From the NCBI RefSeq assembly GCF_965641715.1, contig NZ_OZ282453.1: DNA of 64,000 bases; one strand, given 5' to 3'. A model generated the notes under the pieces. It ran no database searches and had not been told where the DNA came from. It saw nothing but the letters and a program-made list of their open reading frames with translations. Position 1 is the stretch's first letter; each line of letters begins with the position of its first letter. The stretch is from Escherichia coli (GTDB taxonomy: Bacteria > Pseudomonadota > Gammaproteobacteria > Enterobacterales > Enterobacteriaceae). The position numbers and the translations under genes are program-made. Positions 8,917-54,798 of the stretch are shown here, one piece after another.

Positions 8917-8970
8917 ATGTCGCAAAATCAAGAAATTAGCAAGAAAGAACAATACAATCTGAACAAGTAA
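8917..8970 (+). pseudogene. ttcC: ttcA 5' remnant (ttcC-like) left at the int-distal prophage junction
   Basis: Reads [17 protein letters not shown] and shares the 26-bp core aagaaagaacaatacaatctgaacaa (8941..8966) with the ttcA start at 53887..53912. Confidence 0.85.
8941..8966. repeat. att core, int-distal junction
   Basis: Exact 26-bp repeat of 53887..53912. Confidence 0.85.
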
Positions 8971-9307: not shown

Positions 9308-9637
9308 ATGAGCAATCTGAATCCATGCATGACGTGTGGTGCCTGTTGTGCATTTTTCCGCGTCTCTTTTTACTGGGCCGAAGCCGATGATGCTGGCGGT
9401 ACTATCCCTGCAAGGCTCACAGAACAAATATCCCCTTTTCACCGATGTATGAGCGGTACCAATCAGAAAAATCCCCGCTGTGTCGCTCTGGCAGGCACTC
9501 CGGGCAAAAATGCCTGCTGCACAATATATGACAATCGTTCGTCCACATGCAGAGAATTCGCCATGTCTGGTGAGAACGGAGAAGCCAATGAGGCGTGCAA
9601 CAGAGCAAGGGCTAAATATGGGCTGGACCCGCTATAA
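9308..9637 (+). CDS. Cysteine-cluster protein (CxxCxxCC, YkgJ-like putative Zn/Fe-binding domain)
   Basis: 109 aa ORF with CMTCGACC motif and further cysteines; lies just inside the prophage boundary. Confidence 0.5.
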
Positions 9638-9914
9638 ATATACGACAATTGTAAAGCCCGACTGTTGTAACAGTCGGGCTTCATTTATTACAGCTTCTCT
9701 GCTTTTTTATTCTGTGAAACCTGGTTCATCTGGCCACACAATATCCGGTGCTACTGATGTATCAACACGGTTCAGCAACACCCGATACTTTTTCCAGGTT
9801 GTTACCAGACTCACATTCGTTCATTAATATGTCCTGTGATTTGCGTGCGGTGAGGTAGCCTTTTCCCAACCTCACCATCATCCGGCAATTTGTATTTATC
9901 ACAAACGGCCTGTA

Positions 9915-12317
9915 TCAGTTGTCTGTTGCACCAACCATACCCGCAAATTTGAGCCATTGTCCTGATGGACTTCTGTTACCGCGGTAGTGATAAACAAGGA
10001 TTGCATTTGTTACTCCACCATAGTCAGCTTTATGTGATGTGGTTAAGCGAATTGTATAATCACCATCGGGCAGGTTAAAAACTTCAATTACAGTCCCTGC
10101 TAATTCAACCGCTCCAAACCCCGTTATATTGTTGATGCTGCCCGCATTGAATCCCATCATATCGCCAAAACCAATCCAGTACTTTTTGCTGAACGCACCA
10201 TTTGACCTCAGGTGGTTAATAAATGTGGACATACTCATGCCCATTTCGCCGCCAGTTATGGCTGATGTACGTACCGAAATACTTGGCAGAGCACTACTCT
10301 TCACATAAGAGCTCAGAAGATTTATGACTTCTGTTTTCGTATAAGCATTAACGTTAGCCGCAGTCAACGTTATATCCGCAGTGCCATCAAACTTCACACC
10401 AGCAATTTCCCTTGCAGTCTGCAATTTCGTGGCACTGGCTGCGTTACCCGTTGTATCCTGATTGCCTGCCGCATTCACCCCCGGGATCAAATCTTTTACT
10501 GTATAAATCTGCGCCCAGTCCGACTCAAACCCATACTCATCCCGTGAGGAACGATAAAACAGCCCACCATTTTTATAATTGGCCCTGATTTGCAACGTCC
10601 GGCAACTTCCACCCCCTGTATAGAAGTTTGCAACAATATAGCTGCTGCCTGTCCGGGTGACATTGTATGCACCAGATTTGGCATTCCACGGAACGCCTCC
10701 CTCTGACTCTGCGTGCACACCGGACGATCCAAGAGCAAAAGCAGAGACATCTGCAGCGGACAGCCTGATGTCTGATTTCAATGCCTTACCATTCACCTTA
10801 CGACCAGATGGAACCCGGTCATTTGCATTATCATTCACCGCTTTCACCGCCATTGGTGTTGCCGCCAGCGATTCACTGTCACTGTCCGTGGCACTGCTGA
10901 GCTGTACCACCCCCTTTCTCGTCGTGCTCGCATCCTCTAGCGCCACGGCAGATGCAATATCCTCTGCCCGTTTTGCTGCTGTCTCGGCACGCGTTGCTGC
11001 AGATTCCGACGTACTTTTGCTCTGAGCTGCCGCTGTCGCACTACCAGCTGCCTCTGTCGCCTTCGTGGATGCCGTCGTGGCACTGACCTTCGCCTCTGAC
11101 GCCTGTCTTACCGCCTCATCTTTTGAAGCAGACGCCGATGATGCTGATGACGCCGCCGAACTGGCGGACGATGCGGCTGCCGTTTCTGAGGCTCCTGCGC
11201 GGGTTTCCGACGCTTTCGCATTCGTCTCAGATGTCTTCGCTGCGGAAGCAGAACTCGCAGCTGCAGTGGCCTGTTCAGTGGCTTCGCCAGCCTTCGTTGT
11301 GGCTGTTGAAGCGGACGATGCAGCGCTTTCTGCCGATTTTCCGGCGGCAGCGGCACTGGCTACAGCCTCCCCTGCCTTCACTGATGCCTCACGGGCCGAT
11401 GATGCAGCCGCGGTTTCTGAGCCTGCCGCAGCTGAGGCACTCTGTCCCGCTGCCGTTTCAGAAGACCTGGCGTTCGTCTCGGACGTTTTTGCCGCTTTCG
11501 CGGAATTGCCTGCCGCTGTTGCCGAGGAAGCTGCGCTACTGGCGCTCGAGGATGCGTTCGTTTCTGATGATTTTGCCGCCTCTTTTGAAGCCGCCGCATC
11601 CCGGGCTGAGGTGGCAGCTTCTGACGCTTTCGTAGTCGCGGTGGATGCAGAAGTGGCTGCTGATTGTTGTGACGCTGCCGCATTCGTTTCTGACGTTTTC
11701 GCGGCACTGGCACTGGTAGCTGCCGCGCTTTTTGAGGACTCTGCAGCGGCAGCACTTTTTGATGCTTCAGTGGCCTTTGTTGATGCCGTTCCTGCGCTGG
11801 AAGTCGCTGACTGAGCCGACGACGCGGCCTGTCCGGCTGACGTGCTGGCTGCGCGTGCTGAGTCCGCAGCATCAGTCGCATGGGTTGCCGCCTCACGGGC
11901 TGATGTGCTGGCATCACTGGCTGACTTCTTCGCGGCTGCCGTGTTCTGTGCCACCACGGACGCGTTACGCGCCACCTCTTCCACCATCAGCTCAAAACGG
12001 CGCAGTGCCTCCGGACGGGCATCATCCTCCGTCATGGCACCGAGAAAATCATTCAGCGTACCGGGTCGGGAATCTTCATACACGGTGATGGTCCCGGCAT
12101 GTGACGGCGGGAATCCTTCCACCAACAGAATAACGCTGTACTGACCGTACTCAACGTCCATGCTGTAACGCCCGGCTTCATCCGGATTTTCTGAGGCCAG
12201 CGTGTTCACCACCACCGTGGTACTGTTACGTTTTGCTTTCAGCTGGATTGTGCAGTTCTGTACCGGTTTTCCTGTGCCGTCTTTCAGTACACCTGAAATC
12301 TTTACTGCCATATTCAC
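9915..12317 (-). CDS. stf: Phage side tail fibre protein (Stf-like) with long Ala/Ser/Thr-rich repeat region
   Basis: 800 aa; N-terminus MAVKISGVLKDGTGKPVQNCTIQLKAKRN... typical of lambdoid prophage tail fibres; no tail-fibre assembly gene seen downstream. Confidence 0.85.
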   Translation of the reverse strand: MNMAVKISGVLKDGTGKPVQNCTIQLKAKRNSTTVVVNTLASENPDEAGRYSMDVEYGQYSVILLVEGFPPSHAGTITVYEDSRPGTLNDFLGAMTEDDARPEALRRFELMVEEVARNASVVAQNTAAAKKSASDASTSAREAATHATDAADSARAASTSAGQAASSAQSATSSAGTASTKATEASKSAAAAESSKSAAATSASAAKTSETNAAASQQSAATSASTATTKASEAATSARDAAASKEAAKSSETNASSSASSAASSATAAGNSAKAAKTSETNARSSETAAGQSASAAAGSETAAASSAREASVKAGEAVASAAAAGKSAESAASSASTATTKAGEATEQATAAASSASAAKTSETNAKASETRAGASETAAASSASSAASSASSASASKDEAVRQASEAKVSATTASTKATEAAGSATAAAQSKSTSESAATRAETAAKRAEDIASAVALEDASTTRKGVVQLSSATDSDSESLAATPMAVKAVNDNANDRVPSGRKVNGKALKSDIRLSAADVSAFALGSSGVHAESEGGVPWNAKSGAYNVTRTGSSYIVANFYTGGGSCRTLQIRANYKNGGLFYRSSRDEYGFESDWAQIYTVKDLIPGVNAAGNQDTTGNAASATKLQTAREIAGVKFDGTADITLTAANVNAYTKTEVINLLSSYVKSSALPSISVRTSAITGGEMGMSMSTFINHLRSNGAFSKKYWIGFGDMMGFNAGSINNITGFGAVELAGTVIEVFNLPDGDYTIRLTTSHKADYGGVTNAILVYHYRGNRSPSGQWLKFAGMVGATDN

Positions 12318-12375
12318 CCCACAAAAAAGCCCGCCTGAACCGGCGGGCTGTCATAACACTGTGTTACCTGGCTAA

Positions 12376-12975
12376 TCAGAATTTATAACCGACACCCACG
12401 ATGAAACCGTCAGTGCGCCAGTCACCACTGCCGGAGCCTTCATAAGCGACATCAATGGCCACGGATTCGGTCGGGTTAAACTGCACGCCAGCCCCCCACG
12501 CCAGAGACGTGTTGCTGTGGCGACCGTCATCACTTCCGGTCAGCACGTCGTGCGTTTTCCCCTTGTTATCAGTTACGCGGAGATAATCCCCGGAAAAAGT
12601 CGACACACGGCTGTAAGCCACACCCGCCATCGCATACGCGCTGAACCATTCATTCACGCGCACAGACGGCCCCGCCATCACGCTGAACCAGCGGTTACGC
12701 ACGGAATCTTCATGCCAGCGGGTATCGCTGTAACGGGTCAGCTGGCGATTCTTGTCTCCTGCATAGCTGAACGACGTCACCATCCCCAGTGTGTCCGTAA
12801 ACTCATAACGGTATTTCACGTTAATCCCGTTCAGATCATCGCTGCCGGGGACGTTCGTCGAGGCATGAAGATAGCCCGCGCTCAGCGTGGACTGATGTTC
12901 AGACGCCCATGCAGGCGCACAGGATGCGGCCAGACAAATGGCTGCGGACAAAATGGCGGCATAAAGTTTACGCAT
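12376..12975 (-). CDS. lom: Outer membrane protein Lom (Ail/Lom family)
   Basis: 199 aa with signal peptide and beta-barrel C-terminus ...GFIVGVGYKF; position after J as in lambda. Confidence 0.92.
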   Translation of the reverse strand: MRKLYAAILSAAICLAASCAPAWASEHQSTLSAGYLHASTNVPGSDDLNGINVKYRYEFTDTLGMVTSFSYAGDKNRQLTRYSDTRWHEDSVRNRWFSVMAGPSVRVNEWFSAYAMAGVAYSRVSTFSGDYLRVTDNKGKTHDVLTGSDDGRHSNTSLAWGAGVQFNPTESVAIDVAYEGSGSGDWRTDGFIVGVGYKF

Positions 12976-13044
12976 AATTACCTCTCGCTTTTCTGCAATA
13001 AAAAAGGCACCATTTCTGGTGCCCTTATCTGGGTTATAAATATT

Positions 13045-16000
13045 TCAACGGATACTGATACCGGAAGCCGCTTTTTTGGTCACTATCACCGTACAGTCTG
13101 TGATGTTACCTGCACCCTGATTGCCTTTCTGGAAAATCCTGAACTCCAGGGTGACGTTCCCACCACCACTCGGCATATCAATAACCGCGCTGTAACTCCC
13201 GGGAACTGCCCCTCTGGTTTCTCTGGATGCGATTAAGACACCGTTTTTGCGAACTTCAAAACCATAACCCGTGTACCTTGTACCTCCCGGGTTATTACCG
13301 CTCCCCGGATTGTCATACGCCACACCGTTAAAAATAATGGGCGGAATAATGATTTGACGGTCAAAGTTATGATCATCGCTGATGGTGACGGTAACCGTCC
13401 CGTCGGGTGTTTCCGTGTTCCCCCACGTACCGACTTTTTTCGGGAAGGCTTTTGATACAGCTTTAACGAAATCTCCTCTGACCTGGGTCGCCTCCAGCAT
13501 GCCCTTAATCGTACAGTTCTGGTTAATCGTGACATTGTTGAGCGTTCCTGAGTTCGCATTCACACTGCCACTGATATCCGCATTTTTCGCCGTCAGTCTC
13601 CCGTCTGGTGTCAGGGAAAATGCCGGCGGATTTCCACCGCTGGTAATGGTGGGAGCCGTCAGGCGTTTCAGGAACACGTCGTTCATGAATATCTGATCGC
13701 CCTGACCAACAAACATCGGTTTTGTGTTGCCATTCGCAGGATTAACCATCGCAATCCTGTCCGCCGCCAGCAGCACCTGACTCTGCATGCCGTCAGGGGT
13801 GTTCTCAATACCGGCACCAATACCCGCGATATAAAGGCGTCCGTCCTGCATCTGCTGCAGCTTCACAGCCCACATGCTGTTCAGGTTATTATTTGTATCA
13901 ACCTGAACCTTCTGTATCTGCTGAATTGCAGCACTCTGGTCTTCCAGTTTCTTATTGACGGTCTGCGTGATTTCATTGCTGACATCCGTAATGGACGTCC
14001 TGATTTCAGCCAGGTCAGGCGCAAGCTGACCGTTATCAATCTGCGTCCACAGCTCCTGAGCCAGATGGGTTTTCCCTATCTCGCCTTTGAAAAAATCCAG
14101 ATAACCGGATGCATCATCACTCGGCTGACCAACAGCCTCCACGAATGCCGATTTGCCAACGGTGTTCACACTGCGGATATAAAAGTAATAATCATGGCCC
14201 GGTTTGATATTGATACTGGCGGCTATCCAGTACAGCGCCGTGCCAAGATAGCGTGCTGTGGTTTCAACCTGCCTGATATCCGCAATCCGCTTTTCCGAGA
14301 ACCAGAACTCAAACTGTACCGTCGGATCATAAACCGCAAGATGCGGCGTGGCGGTTATCTGAAAATAGCCCGGCGTCAGCTCAATCCGCGACGGCGCTGC
14401 CGGTGCGGCAATCCGGAACGATACCGACGCCGGATCGCCCTGCTGCCCCCACGCATTTACTGCCCGGACTGTCAGCCTGTAGTTCCCCAGCGCCAGTTGT
14501 GTGAAGCGGTAAGTGGTTTCCGTCGTCCGGGCCGTGCTGACCAGCCACTCACTGCCGTCATCCGCTGTTACGGTCAGACGGAGCAGGAAGCTCACGCCCT
14601 TCACCACCTTCGGCGTGTCCCAGCGCGCCAGCACCTGATATTCCCCGCTGTCTGCGGTGACTTCGGCAGTCAGGTGCTGCACCGCTGGCGGCGTGACACC
14701 ATTCACCGTGCCGCTCTGGTCGCCGTCAAAGTGCGCCCCGTTATCCACGATGGCTTCTTTTTCCGGTACATGCTGCACGGCGGTGATGGCATACGTGCCG
14801 TCGTCGTTCTCACGGATACTCACGCAGCGGAACAGGCGCTGGCGCAGCGTCGGCAGCTTCAGCCCCCACACGCTGTATTCAGCAACGCCGTCAGGAACAC
14901 GGCTCACTTTCACCTTCACGCCGTCGGTGACGGACTGAACCTCCACGCTGACCGGATTGCCACTTCCGTCAACCAGGCTTATCAGCGTGGTGCCGGAGGA
15001 TGGCAGCGTGATTTCACGGTCGAGCGTCAGCGTCCGGGTCTGGCTGTTCACCGCCAGCACGCGCCCGCCGGTGCTGATACCGGCATAGTCATCATCGCAG
15101 ATTTCAATGACATCGCCCGGTACATGGCGAAGCCCTTCGGCACCCACGCTGAAGTCCACGGTCTGCGTTTCCAGCAGTTCTGTTTTAATCAGCCACAGCC
15201 CGGCGCGGTGCGCCTGCCCCCGACTGGTACAGCCAAACGCATCCATCTTCGTGACGTTACGACCGTAACGGGCAATGGCCTGCGAGTCCTCCACAAGCTC
15301 TGTCGCCGTCTCCTGGCCGTTATCCGGGTCAATCCAGTTCACTTCAACGGCATTATGGCGGTCTTTCAGGGCGCTGAAGCTGTAGCGGAATGGTGCGCCA
15401 TCATCCGGCATCACCACATTACTGCGGTTATAGGTCCACACCTTATCCGACGGTCGGTCCTGCACGAACGTCAGCGTCTGCCCGTTCCATACCGGCATAC
15501 AGCGCATCGCAGAGCAGAAATCACTGAGCACATCCCACGCCTTGCGCTGTGTGGTCAGGTACGCATTACAGGTGATGCGCGGCTCCGTGCCGCCAAAACC
15601 GTCCGGCACCGACTGATCGCAATGCTGGCCGATGACATACAGCGCCCATTTGTCCACATCCGCCGCACCAAGACGTTTCCCCATGCCGTAGCGCGGATGG
15701 GTCAGCATATCCCACAGACACCAGGCCATGTTGTTGCTGTATGCTGGCTTAAACGTTCCGTCCCAGATACCGCTGTATTGCCGCGTCTGCGGGTTATAGT
15801 TCGACGGCACCTGCAGAATACGCCCGCGCAGATGATAATTACGGCTCACCTGCTGGCTGCCGAACTGCTCCGAATCCACCTGTACGCCGACCAGTGCCGT
15901 GTTCGGGTAGCACTGTTTCACATCGATGATTTCGGTGTATGACGACCAGAGCGTTTTGTTCTGCAGCTGGTCTGTGGTGCTGTCCGGCGTCATTCTGCGC

Positions 16001-16542
16001 ATCCGGATATTAAACGGGCGCGGCGGCAGGTTATCCACCACCACCGAGGCCAGATACTGTGAAGTTGTTTTGCCCTTAATGGTGATATCTTTTTCCGTCA
16101 CCCAGCCACCGTTACGCTGTATCTGAACCAGCAGGCGGACTTCCGACGGATTCCGGTCCCCTTTTGAGGTGGTTTCCACCAGTGCCTGCACGCCGAAAGT
16201 AAAACGCAGACGGTCAATGTTTGCCGACGTGATGGTCCGGGTGATCGGCGTGTCATATTTCACTTCCGTACCCAGCACCGTCTCGGATCCGGAGGATTCA
16301 AAACCCTCCGGCGGTGTCTGCTCCTGCTCACCGGCCCGGAACACCACCGTGACACCGGAGATGTTGGTATTCCCCTCACTGTCCAGCACCGGCGTACTGT
16401 TCAGCAGCACGCTTTTTAATCCCTCCACCGGACCTTCTATCGGCCCTTCGCTGATGGCATCAATCACACTCAGCAACTGCGTGGATTTCAGATTGTCCTT
16501 CGCTTCTCGCGGGGTATGCCCCTTACTGCTGCCTTTACCCAT
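13045..16542 (-). CDS. J: Tail tip host-specificity protein J
   Basis: 1165 aa; [37 protein letters not shown]... near-identical to lambda J over most of its length, with a divergent C-terminal receptor-binding region. Confidence 0.97.
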
Positions 16543-48123: not shown

Positions 48124-50109
48124 ATGAGCACAAAACCACTCTTCCTGTTACGGAAAGCGAAAAAATTATCCGGTGAACCTGACGTCGTCCTGTGGGCAAG
48201 CGACGATCTTGAATCGACCTGTGCCACTCTGGATTACCTGATCGTTAAGTCAGGTAAAAAACTGAGCAACTATTTTAAAGCTGTTGCTACTAATTTTCCT
48301 GTCGTTAACGACCTGCCCCCAGAAGGGGAGATCGATTTTACGTGGTGTGAACGCTATCAACTCGGCAAGGACTCAGTCACTTGGAAACTAAAACCGGGTG
48401 CAGCACCAGACAACGCTCACTATCAAGGCAATACCAACGTCAACGGCGAAGACATGACTGAGATTGAGGAGAATATGTTACTGCCGGTATCAGGTCAGAT
48501 TCTGCCTGTTCGATGGCTGGCACAGCATGGCAGCGAAAAACCGATCACACACGTTTCGCGGAGCGAACTGCGCGCATTACATAACGCACAGGATGAAAAA
48601 CTTCCCGCCGTTACCGCGCTGGCTATCTCAAATAAAGCAGCACAACTCGAACCGCTGGAAATTCGCGAGCTCCACAAACTGGTTCGTGACACTGACAAAG
48701 TTTTCCCTAATCCTAGTAATTCAGACCTGGGACTGATGACTGCTTTTTTCGAAGCATACCTGGGCGCTGACTACACCGATCGCGGTCTGCTTACAAAAGA
48801 GTGGATGAAGGGGAATCGTGTTTCACGCATCACCCGCACGGCTTCCGGTGCTAATGCTGGCGGCGGGAACCTCACCGATCGCGGCGAAGGTTTCGTCCAC
48901 GATCTGACGTCACTGGCGCGCGACGTAGCCACTGGCGTACTGGCCCGTTCAATGGATCTGGACATCTATAACCTTCATCCGGCACACGCTAAACGCATTG
49001 AGGAAATTATCGCTGAAAATAAACCGCCCTTTTCTGTTTTCCGCGACAAATTCATCACCATGCCTGGCGGGCTGGATTATTCCCGTGCCATCGTGGTTGC
49101 GTCCGTGAAAGAAGCACCAATTGGGATCGATGTCATCCCCGCGCAAGTCACTGAATATCTGAACAAAGTACTGACTGAAACCGATCATGCCAACCCTGAT
49201 CCGGAAATCGTGGATATTGCCTGCGGTCGCTCCTCTGCCCCGATGCTGCAGCGTGTAACAGAAGAAGAAAAACAGGATGATGAAGAAAAACCGCAACCAT
49301 CTTGCGCAATGGCAGATGAACAGGCAATGGCTGAAACAGTGGAACCGGATGCAACTGAACATCATCAGGACACGCAGCCGCTGGATGCTCAGTCACAGGT
49401 AAATGCTGTTGATGCGAAATATCAGAAACTGCGGACAGAACTCCATGAAGCCCGGAAAAACATTCCGTCCAAAAATCCTGTCGATGCAGACAAATTACTG
49501 GCTGCCTCTCGCGGAGAATTTGTTGAAGGGATTAGCGACCCGAATGATCCGAAATGGGTTAAGGGGATCCAGACCCACGATTCTGTGTACCAGAATCAAC
49601 CAGAAACGGAACAGAACGACCGAAAATCGGAACAGAACAGCCCAAATACGCAACAAAACGAGCCAGAAACGAAACAGCCTGAGCCAGTAGTGCAACAACT
49701 GGAAACGGAGAAAGTTTGCACCGCCTGCGGTCAGGCTGGCGGCGGCAACTGTCCTGACTGCGGCGCGGTGATGGGCGACGCAACGTATCAGAAAACCTTT
49801 AATGAAGAAAATCAGAATGAATATCAGGAAAAAGGTCTGGAGGAAATGGAAGGTGCTGAACATCCGCACAAGGAGAACGCTGGCAGCGTTCCGCATCGCG
49901 ATTGCAGTGATGAAACTGGCGAAGCAGCAGCTTCATCATTAGAAAAACTCGACTGGAAAAGACAAGTGGTGATTGCAGCGGTTTACGGTTTATGTGCGAA
50001 TCCTGCGGGTATAGCCTCAGCGCCATTAATTCCGGGTATTGCAATGATGATTGCAAACAAACTTGAAAATTTTGGGGTGACGGATGATGAGTACATGCCC
50101 AATTTTTGA
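48124..50109 (+). CDS. recE: RecE N-terminal region (truncated exonuclease VIII, lacks the C-terminal nuclease domain)
   Basis: 661 aa [46 protein letters not shown]... matches the non-catalytic N-terminal two-thirds of Rac RecE (866 aa); the frame ends where lambda gam begins. Confidence 0.8.
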
Positions 50110-52575: not shown

Positions 52576-53811
52576 ATGTCTAAATTACCAACAGGTGTCG
52601 AGATTAGAGGTAGATACATTCGCATCTGGTTCATGTTTCGAGGAAAACGATGTCGGGAAACATTAAAAGGCTGGGAGATTACAAACAGTAATATTAAAAA
52701 GGCCGGAAATTTAAGAGCGCTGATAGTTCATGAAATAAACTCCGGTGAATTTGAGTATTTAAGACGTTTTCCCCAGTCCAGCACTGGGGCAAAAATGGTG
52801 ACAACGAGAGTCATAAAAACGTTCGGGGAGCTTTGTGATATCTGGACAAAAATTAAAGAGACAGAGTTAACAACAAACACAATGAAGAAAACGAAATCAC
52901 AATTAAAAACACTCAGAATAATAATTTGTGAAAGTACCCCGATATCACATATTCGTTATAGCGATATCTTAAACTACCGGAATGAACTGCTGCATGGAGA
53001 AACGCTTTACCTGGATAATCCAAGATCCAACAAAAAAGGAAGAACCGTGCGCACAGTTGATAACTATATCGCCCTGCTCTGTTCGCTGTTACGTTTTGCG
53101 TATCAGTCGGGATTTATATCAACCAAACCATTTGAAGGAGTAAAAAAATTACAGCGAAACAGAATAAAGCCTGATCCGTTATCTAAAACAGAATTCAATG
53201 CATTAATGGAAAGTGAAAAAGGACAGAGCCAAAACTTGTGGAAATTTGCCGTTTACTCAGGACTTCGTCACGGGGAACTGGCAGCTCTGGCGTGGGAGGA
53301 TGTGGATCTCGAAAAGGGAATAGTGAATGTCAGAAGAAACCTGACGATACTTGATATGTTCGGTCCCCCAAAAACAAATGCCGGGATCCGGACAGTAACA
53401 CTACTGCAGCCTGCTCTTGAAGCACTGAAGGAGCAATACAAACTGACCGGACATCATCGCAAAAGCGAAATCACCTTTTATCATAGGGAGTACGGCAGAA
53501 CCGAAAAGCAAAAACTGCATTTTGTTTTCATGCCCAGGATGTGTAACGGAAAACAGAAACCTTATTACTCGGTAAGCAGTTTGGGGGCAAGGTGGAATGC
53601 AACAGTAAAACGTGCTGGTATTCGCCGCCGTAATCCGTACCATACGCGGCATACTTTTGCCTGCTGGCTGTTGACGGCAGGAGCGAACCCGGCATTTATA
53701 GCCAGCCAGATGGGGCATGAAACTGCGCAGATGGTGTATGAAATTTACGGTATGTGGATTGATGACATGAACGACGAACAGGTAGCCATGTTGAATGCGC
53801 GGTTATCGTAG
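52576..53811 (+). CDS. int: Tyrosine site-specific integrase (IntR-like)
   Basis: 411 aa; C-terminal catalytic region with HxxR and Tyr (...YHTRHTFACWLL...MGHETAQMVYEIY); adjacent to the att core in ttcA. Confidence 0.93.
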   Translation: MSKLPTGVEIRGRYIRIWFMFRGKRCRETLKGWEITNSNIKKAGNLRALIVHEINSGEFEYLRRFPQSSTGAKMVTTRVIKTFGELCDIWTKIKETELTTNTMKKTKSQLKTLRIIICESTPISHIRYSDILNYRNELLHGETLYLDNPRSNKKGRTVRTVDNYIALLCSLLRFAYQSGFISTKPFEGVKKLQRNRIKPDPLSKTEFNALMESEKGQSQNLWKFAVYSGLRHGELAALAWEDVDLEKGIVNVRRNLTILDMFGPPKTNAGIRTVTLLQPALEALKEQYKLTGHHRKSEITFYHREYGRTEKQKLHFVFMPRMCNGKQKPYYSVSSLGARWNATVKRAGIRRRNPYHTRHTFACWLLTAGANPAFIASQMGHETAQMVYEIYGMWIDDMNDEQVAMLNARLS

Positions 53812-53862: not shown

Positions 53863-54798
53863 ATGCAAGAAAATCAAAAGAATACGAAGAAAGAACAATA
53901 CAATCTGAACAAATTACAAAAACGCCTGCGTCGTAACGTGGGCGAAGCCATTGCTGACTTCAATATGATTGAAGAAGGCGATCGCATCATGGTTTGCCTC
54001 TCCGGGGGTAAAGACAGCTATACCATGCTGGAGATTCTGCGCAATTTGCAGCAAAGCGCGCCAATCAATTTTTCGCTGGTGGCTGTTAACCTCGATCAAA
54101 AGCAACCGGGCTTCCCGGAACACGTTCTGCCCGAGTATCTTGAAAAGCTGGGCGTTGAGTACAAGATTGTTGAAGAGAACACTTACGGTATCGTGAAAGA
54201 GAAGATTCCAGAGGGCAAAACCACTTGCTCACTGTGTTCTCGCCTTCGTCGCGGTATTCTTTATCGTACCGCAACGGAACTGGGGGCGACGAAGATCGCG
54301 CTGGGTCACCATCGTGACGATATCCTGCAGACGCTGTTCTTAAATATGTTCTACGGCGGCAAGATGAAAGGTATGCCTCCGAAACTGATGAGCGATGATG
54401 GCAAACATATCGTTATTCGTCCGCTGGCCTACTGCCGCGAGAAAGATATTCAGCGATTTGCCGATGCAAAAGCGTTCCCGATTATTCCGTGCAACCTGTG
54501 CGGTTCACAGCCTAACCTGCAACGTCAGGTGATTGCTGACATGTTGCGTGACTGGGATAAACGTTATCCAGGGCGTATCGAGACGATGTTCAGCGCGATG
54601 CAGAATGTGGTGCCGTCGCATCTGTGCGATACCAACCTGTTCGATTTCAAAGGCATCACCCACGGTTCTGAAGTGGTTAACGGGGGTGATCTGGCGTTTG
54701 ATCGCGAAGAGATCCCACTACAACCGGCGGGCTGGCAGCCAGAAGAAGATGAAAATCAGTTGGATGAGTTACGGCTGAATGTGGTTGAAGTGAAATAA
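53863..54798 (+). CDS. ttcA: tRNA 2-thiocytidine(32) synthetase
   Basis: 311 aa with PP-loop SGGKDS and CxxC motifs; the first 8 codons are prophage-derived (see att). Confidence 0.96.
53887..53912. repeat. att core, int-proximal junction (inside the ttcA 5' end)
   Basis: Exact 26-bp repeat of 8941..8966. Confidence 0.85.

Follow-up and report, generated by a model that had tools for sequence, protein, structure and literature searches.

A lambdoid prophage of Escherichia coli with a putative Tfa-independent side tail fiber tip beside a phage 434-type J protein

The 64,000-nt stretch of Escherichia coli chromosome analyzed here (contig NZ_OZ282453.1 of assembly GCF_965641715.1; hereafter the window) carries a lambdoid prophage at the Rac (ttcA) site, and this study concerns its tail fiber region at positions 9915-16542, which comprises the genes J, lom and stf. 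According to our analysis, the side tail fiber (Stf) of this prophage probably has a functional tip that was gained by recombination and does not depend on the assembly chaperone Tfa, and it lies beside a J protein of the phage 434, OmpC-directed type. Fibers in the class of lambda Stf, P2 H and Mu/P1 S generally require a chaperone of the tfa family that is encoded next to them, and the chaperones of this family act on fiber tips. Judged from the sequence comparisons, a replacement of the tip that would have made tfa dispensable accounts better for the missing chaperone than simple decay does. The parts of the fiber locus, from the start of stf to the end of the former tfa gene, are as follows.

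9915-12311, minus strand: stf, side tail fiber gene, intact, 798 aa from the ATG (MAVKISG...)
11910-12311, minus strand: N-terminal domain of Stf, residues 1-134 (PF08400 phage_tail_N, E 1e-71)
10872-11951, minus strand: Ala/Ser/Thr-rich shaft, Stf residues 121-480 (71% Ala, Ser and Thr)
10494-10706, minus strand: module A, a knob of the gp37_C type (PF12604, E 2e-6), matching residues 323-406 of 8JU3
9918-10500, minus strand: foreign tip cassette of about 195 aa, a GNAASATKLQTAR-type repeat and then the terminal knob
9918-10349, minus strand: terminal knob domain (module B), the last 144 aa
9799-9914, minus strand: spacer of 116 nt that separates the stop codon of stf from the tfa remnant
9707-9817, minus strand: tfa remnant, the last 30 or so codons of a Caudo_TAP (PF02413) gene, located by tblastn to lambda Tfa

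The gene coordinates and the fiber length of about 800 aa given by a first-pass annotation of this DNA proved correct: the open reading frame (ORF) of stf covers 9915-12317 and 800 aa when read from a GTG, and 798 aa from the lambda-like ATG at 12311, which is most likely the start, as in lambda Stf. The PF08400 domain and the position after J and lom assign the N-terminal part to the lambda Stf/StfR type, and in its DNA this domain shares 87-93% identity with both lambda stf and K-12 stfR. The shaft is homologous to the same two genes as well, again with 87-93% identity of the DNA, as far as about 10824. It had been described earlier as a long Ala/Ser/Thr repeat region; the composition is indeed as described, but Tandem Repeats Finder detected no tandem DNA repeat within it. 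A Phage_fiber_2 repeat and then module A follow the shaft.

In ordinary Stf proteins the Collar domain comes after module A. The window Stf lacks a lambda-type Collar and tip, the Collar family PF07484 having given no match in Pfam scans. The DNA that is common to other stf alleles reaches down to 10501, and between 10500 and 9919 no similarity to stfR or lambda stf DNA was found. This foreign C-terminal cassette of about 195 residues had been missed in the first-pass annotation. A Pfam scan of the last 341 aa (E <= 10) returned only PF03406, PF12604 and one chance match, and it revealed neither Peptidase_S74 (PF13884) nor any other intramolecular-chaperone domain. The last 312 aa of Stf are 77% identical to the C-terminus of the fiber CYRAN_21 of Cyrano, with 80-83% identity for the cassette DNA. 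Cyrano is pLF82, an SSU5-like phage-plasmid of strain LF82, which makes virions and can be induced with ciprofloxacin (PMC9928086). The junctions of the exchanged segment lie at about 10500 and at 9798/9799; a shared linker, W-A-Q-I/V-Y-T followed by KD.IPGVN, was recognized at the cassette junction.

The window fiber has two globular modules: module A, which holds PWNAKSGAYNV...YKNGGLFYRSSRD, and module B, which holds STFINHLRSNGAF...LVYHYRG. Both are also present in P7 S and Mu S', in the reversed order. The terminal knob has the character of the knobs of Mu S' and P1/P7 S, as it matches residues 177-330 of 8JU3 by sequence profile and by fold; a usable AlphaFold2 (AF2) model of the last 144 aa was obtained for the monomer from a 44-sequence alignment. 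The PHROG family phrog_6722 spans the tip to its very end. A search of 1.84 billion representative proteins gave 123 matches to the terminal domain. In six of the seven best-scoring clusters the full domain is at the extreme C-terminus (the seventh is a 105-aa fragment), and the other matches, more than 110, are internal domains of about 95 aa in long fibers of up to 3594 aa. As a specialized copy of a domain that is usually internal in Mu S', P1/P7 S and many other fibers, the terminal knob shows an internal domain moved to the distal end. Terminal copies were found on lambdoid Stf proteins, on SSU5-like fibers and on a P2/Mu-type fiber with a PF12571 N-terminus (P0124, 62% identity). All of them end within three residues of each other and contain the motif SP.GQWLKFAG..GAT..; the C-terminus of this terminal subfamily, ...SPSGQWLKFAGxxGATxN, is conserved at 62-100% identity across the three fiber types.

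Downstream of the fiber gene, an intact ORF for a Tfa of about 190 aa is absent. The earlier statement that no tfa-like gene lies between stf and the prophage boundary was right in this respect, but it overlooked the 3' remnant; a search of the 9640-9915 gap in all frames, which had been proposed as a check, recovered the last 30 or so residues and no intact gene. By tblastn, 9722-9817 aligns to residues 160-191 of lambda Tfa (72% identity, E 5e-10), at the DNA level 9730-9798 shares 88-91% identity with tfaR and lambda tfa, and a 35-codon ORF occupies 9707-9814. Because in-frame stop codons lie just upstream, this piece is a remnant and not a short gene. In PEC41 and EC416, the Prokaryotic Genome Annotation Pipeline (PGAP) labels it "tail fiber assembly protein, missing N-terminus." Among the fetched loci, the 116-nt spacer occurs only with this cassette (PEC41, EC416 and L016) and is absent from the A10, L010 and Cyrano contexts, while the alignments of the plasmid search stopped at the stf stop codon, short of the spacer. 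The possibility of a hidden chaperone was rejected: tblastn with seven queries of the Tfa/U/DUF4376 type (lambda Tfa, TfaR, P7 Ua, Ub and U', the 434 chaperone and a DUF4376 protein) detected only the tfa remnant in the 64 kb of the window, and the same seven queries found no homologue in the entire 108-kb Cyrano genome by tblastn or phmmer. A 48-codon ORF overlapping the end of stf was likewise discarded as a chaperone candidate, its differences from L016 being mostly non-synonymous.

When the carriers of this tip were compared, homology stopped at the stf stop codon (9914-9919) every time, and five distinct 3' contexts were distinguished, none of which contains an intact Caudo_TAP gene.

Context 1: the 116-nt spacer and the tfa 3' remnant, at the Rac site (window, PEC41), by prfC (EC416) and by the pot genes (L016)
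Context 2: a YgiW-family gene, in the dusA prophage of strain A10
Context 3: a DUF4376/phrog_1141 ORF (L010 513-1130), with no ATG and with the first 24 or so profile positions missing
Context 4: holin-endolysin-spanin genes, in Cyrano-like phage-plasmids (Cyrano, L011, L013)
Context 5: a gene for a 168-aa lipoprotein (L015 8964-9470), after the P2/Mu-type fiber

L010 is a prophage adjoining a mannitol dehydrogenase-family gene and ydfZ, and its DUF4376 ORF, also truncated at the 5' end, adds a second example of such damage to an accessory gene behind the fiber gene. The L015 lipoprotein has the lipobox LSLGGC and belongs to phrog_9559; it could be a superinfection-exclusion protein. A 3' flank of about 35 nt with an A/T hairpin is common to A10 and L010 and is lacking in the window.

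These contexts bear on the question of whether the fiber still needs a chaperone that is given in trans, by the tfa of another prophage, by an unrecognized small ORF or by a host chaperone. In favor of this, a query containing the tfa 3' end matched 4,120 of the 5,426 complete E. coli genomes, mostly through short pieces annotated as tfa; the DUF4376 ORF and the lipoprotein gene that follow the fiber gene in one context each, as well as the 48-codon ORF at the end of stf, would be further candidates. However, the downstream genes vary with the context, the DUF4376 ORF is 5'-truncated and has no ATG, and the 48-codon ORF shows non-synonymous changes in L016. Moreover, no Tfa-like protein is encoded anywhere in Cyrano, and the new tip is without the C-terminal segment that follows the knobs in P7 S and Mu S'. 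We therefore regard a chaperone supplied in trans as quite improbable, and as less likely than a dead fiber, which is considered below.

An origin of the tip by switching of an invertible segment of the Pin/Cin/Gin type was also rejected, as the window contains no PinR homologue and no cix-like site; in particular, no site resembling AAACCnnGGTTT in a cix-like context was found in it. Under the reading that we favor, a functional and Tfa-independent tip, recombination at the shared linker would have exchanged the Collar and the Tfa-dependent tip of a lambda-type Stf for the cassette of about 195 aa that ends in a knob. The cassette may have brought along 116 nt of the DNA that flanked its 3' end, the right junction falling inside tfa and leaving some 30 codons of it. 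The new fiber end is predicted to trimerize without Tfa, and the terminal knob would be the new distal, receptor-contacting end. The presumed independence from Tfa is suggested by three observations: the tip lacks the C-terminal segment that follows the knobs in P7 S and Mu S', the cassette was never linked to an intact chaperone gene, and it is the sole fiber tip in a successful phage-plasmid lineage without tfa. Receptor contact by the terminal knob is plausible, judged from its position alone; a surface glycan as the receptor would be no more than a guess.

In its prophage version the tip is rare, being present in only 7 of the 5,426 complete E. coli genomes. Five of these carriers are from domestic pigs (PEC41, EC416, ETEC1731, ETEC1747 and CV839-06), one is from a feral pig (RM10740) and one from a wood-wren; this pig bias may reflect host ecology or sampling. 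The Cyrano version was found on about 200 E. coli plasmids at approximately 83% nucleotide identity, with 203 of the 208 matches on non-mobilizable plasmids; the sizes among the 12 matches listed were 108-198 kb, and 11 of these 12 were 108-125 kb.

The main rival explanation is that stf is a dead end, in which a recombination accident added a foreign end and destroyed tfa, and the phage now uses J alone. The reduction of tfa to about 30 codons and the derivation of the end domain from one that is normally internal to fibers would fit such an accident. Nevertheless, none of the copies examined, from at least four integration sites, has an interrupted stf ORF. On three types of fiber, the terminal subfamily keeps a conserved C-terminus of its own, and a widespread phage-plasmid lineage has this tip as its only fiber tip. 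For the last 144 codons, the ratio of non-synonymous to synonymous substitution rates (dN/dS) between prophage and phage-plasmid copies was 0.06-0.08 at a synonymous divergence (dS) of about 1 (0.07 across the lineages), while most comparisons among prophage copies gave 0.23-0.41. The uninterrupted ORFs, the conservation of the C-terminus and the low dN/dS speak against a dead fiber, and we consider this explanation unlikely.

Several points nevertheless weigh against a functional fiber. Lambda is viable without side fibers, as is the case in laboratory lambda, and a dead stf would not be purged quickly, which favors the dead-fiber explanation. So does one very close prophage pair with a dN/dS of 0.89, although this value rests on few changes and the counts for the prophage copies are small; a large share of the measured purifying selection may stem from the phage-plasmid lineage. 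PGAP calls stf a pseudogene in carrier genomes. The structural modeling covered the monomer only, and a first AF2 model, built for the last 269 aa from 12 aligned sequences, could not be used, with a confidence score (predicted local distance difference test, pLDDT) of 36. On the J side, the differences from 434 that are described below count against the use of OmpC. Finally, no indicator host was reported for Cyrano (PMC9928086), and hence the function of its fiber is unproven.

The pseudogene label can be traced in some detail. PGAP describes stf as a pseudogene, "incomplete; missing C-terminus," and leaves about 1 kb unannotated, as verified in PEC41, EC416 and A10; the genome search suggests that the four remaining carriers, of seven in all, are labeled likewise. 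The homologues flagged in this way are L001 5814-7313, L002 5081-6580 and L008 4894-6393, and in PEC41, EC416 and A10 the real ORFs are intact and encode 798-829 aa. The annotation ends where the likeness to known Stf proteins ends. This is an annotation blind spot, in which an intact fiber gene is systematically flagged as a pseudogene in the carrier genomes.

A broader and more tentative proposal, to which we give somewhat less than even weight, extends the Tfa-independent tip beyond this prophage. A cassette of about 170-195 aa, derived from an internal knob and with its 3' boundary at the stop codon, may be a self-trimerizing, chaperone-free portable tip that has moved among SSU5-like phage-plasmids, lambdoid prophages and P2/Mu-type fibers, with the resident chaperone gene being made dispensable and then truncated. 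Host-range engineering normally moves a fiber tip and its chaperone as a pair. A tip that is under purifying selection, ends at a fixed residue and has no linked intact chaperone gene is a candidate for a single-gene plug-in tip. The architecture is rare and free of a chaperone gene, and it is already in the databases yet uncharacterized; overall, we attribute modest importance to this fiber half of the analysis, whereas the J half adds nothing new.

The second element of the region is the tail tip protein J, for which the following features were delineated.

13045-16542, minus strand: J, tail tip attachment or central fiber protein, 1165 aa, with six Pfam GpJ domains
13843-14124, minus strand: stalk segment of J, residues 807-900, unlike both lambda and 434 and with 28 extra residues relative to each
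13051-13458, minus strand: C-terminal receptor-binding domain of J, 434/OmpC type, residues 1029-1164 (PF12421 Ig_GpJ_C, E 1.3e-25)
J residues 1-806: identity of 97.9% to lambda and 98.5% to 434
J residues 807-900: identity of 33% to lambda (with a 28-residue insertion) and 34% to 434
J residues 901-1020: identity of 75% to lambda and 79% to 434
J residues 1021-1165: identity of 37.9% to lambda and 94.5% to 434

The six domains, in the order PF24801, PF13550, PF24421, PF24489, PF09327 and PF12421, were matched with E-values of 1e-25 to 1e-41; they represent FNIII-A, Phage-tail_3, two Ig-like domains, the tail tip fiber and the C-terminal receptor-binding domain. All six models exceeded their cut-offs, which makes the protein a lambda-type J. 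Over the whole length it is 82% identical to lambda J and 91% identical to 434 J. The first-pass annotation had described about 1000 lambda-like residues followed by a divergent end of roughly 150. The divergent end is real, while the extent was overestimated, as 97.9% identity holds only to residue 806 and falls to 33% at 807-900. Alignment with J proteins of known receptor specificity showed that the end is not lambda-identical, and the earlier suggestion of a receptor other than LamB is borne out because the C-terminal end is of the phage 434 type.

Replacement of lambda J by the J gene of 434 redirects lambda to OmpC, the receptor of 434 itself (PMC3509688, PMC11101478). We conclude from this likeness that J is a mosaic and that the tail tip most likely docks on the porin OmpC, not on LamB. 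The last 211 residues have matches of 91-95% in dozens of lambdoid and Stx phages, and for the segment 807-960 the J proteins of Chlobot, phi458, mEp332, Ayreon and several Stx2 phages show 98-100% identity; a literature search for receptor data on the mEp332-type J returned nothing relevant. The allele is already known and common in lambdoid and Stx phages, and it represents no novelty. It could be argued that the end binds some receptor besides OmpC notwithstanding its likeness to 434, since 8 of the final 145 residues differ from 434 and a few mutations can switch lambda J between porins, as discussed in PMC11101478, so that small changes can shift receptor specificity. This seems improbable in view of the 94.5% identity to the 434 receptor-binding domain, the wide distribution of the same allele and a recently described OmpC-dependent siphophage of enterohaemorrhagic E. 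coli with a 434-like J (PMC12502783).

Between J and stf, and beyond the tfa remnant as far as the prophage end, the following features were identified.

12376-12975, minus strand: lom, outer-membrane beta-barrel of the Ail/Lom type, 199 aa (PF06316, E 2e-119, full length)
9654-9681: hairpin with a 12-bp stem, between the convergent tfa remnant and ykgJ-like gene
9308-9637, plus strand: gene of the YkgJ family with CxxCxxCC (PF03692, E 3e-11), between the tfa remnant and attR
8941-8966: attR core, a 26-bp exact direct repeat whose partner at 53887-53912 adjoins int and ttcA

GC-rich hairpins with T runs are located on both sides of lom, at 13026-13003 after J and at 12349-12328 before the stf start, which fits an insulated unit that is read through by late antiterminated transcription. 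The hairpin at 9654-9681 is likely a terminator. The host genes nifJ/ydbK, ompN and uspF were recognized at 3.1-8.7 kb and ttcA at 53863-54798, with the prophage lying between the uspF side and ttcA and int at 52576-53811. In alignments, the 26-bp repeat falls on the 3' end of ttcA and on the ttcC pseudogene that lies at the end of Rac in K-12; taken as the attachment (att) cores, its two copies delimit a prophage of about 45 kb. The boundary near 9640 assumed in the first-pass annotation is thus incorrect, the actual end being the repeat at 8941-8966, some 700 bp further out. This position of the repeat places the ykgJ-family gene inside the prophage as cargo. The gene converges on the late operon and is probably a moron; in K-12 Rac, the corresponding place is taken by pinR-ynaE-ynaM. 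The prophage is apparently complete. Its morphogenesis ORFs are full length, and its closest relative is a prophage of the pig strain PEC41 that was annotated as a complete lambdoid, from int/xis through J. In the recE region, the largest ORF encodes 661 aa (48124-50109, plus strand), as compared with a RecE of 1042 aa in the PEC41 prophage.

Overall, the region combines features of several known systems. The J protein has the same domain order as J of phage 434, the OmpC-specific h434 host-range determinant, with 98.5% identity over residues 1-806 and 94.5% over the last 145, whereas at residues 807-900 (34% identity, 28 extra residues) it agrees with the allele found in mEp332, phi458 and Stx2 phages. 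With lambda Stf and K-12 StfR, the fiber shares the PF08400 domain, the Ala/Ser/Thr shaft, the Phage_fiber_2 repeat, the gene order J-lom-stf and the tfa 3' end with its terminator region; it differs from them in having neither the Collar nor the Tfa-dependent tip and in its foreign last 195 or so residues. Compared with the Tfa and TfaR genes of lambda and K-12, tfa is cut to about 30 codons, and a pin gene is missing. P7 has U-type chaperone genes, Ua and Ub, after S within a Cin-invertible segment, while the window has no chaperone gene and no cix-like site. In Mu S' (8JU3) and P1/P7 S, knob B precedes knob A and a further tip of about 85 aa follows, whereas in the window A is followed by B and the protein ends. 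The Cyrano fiber (CYRAN_21; pLF82, SSU5-like; OV696614) is different in its length of 1341 aa, its N-terminal half, its location on a phage-plasmid of about 108 kb and the holin gene downstream; however, it has no tfa after it either, and it shares with the window fiber the same order of modules, from the gp37_C knob through the repeat to the terminal knob, and the same C-terminus.

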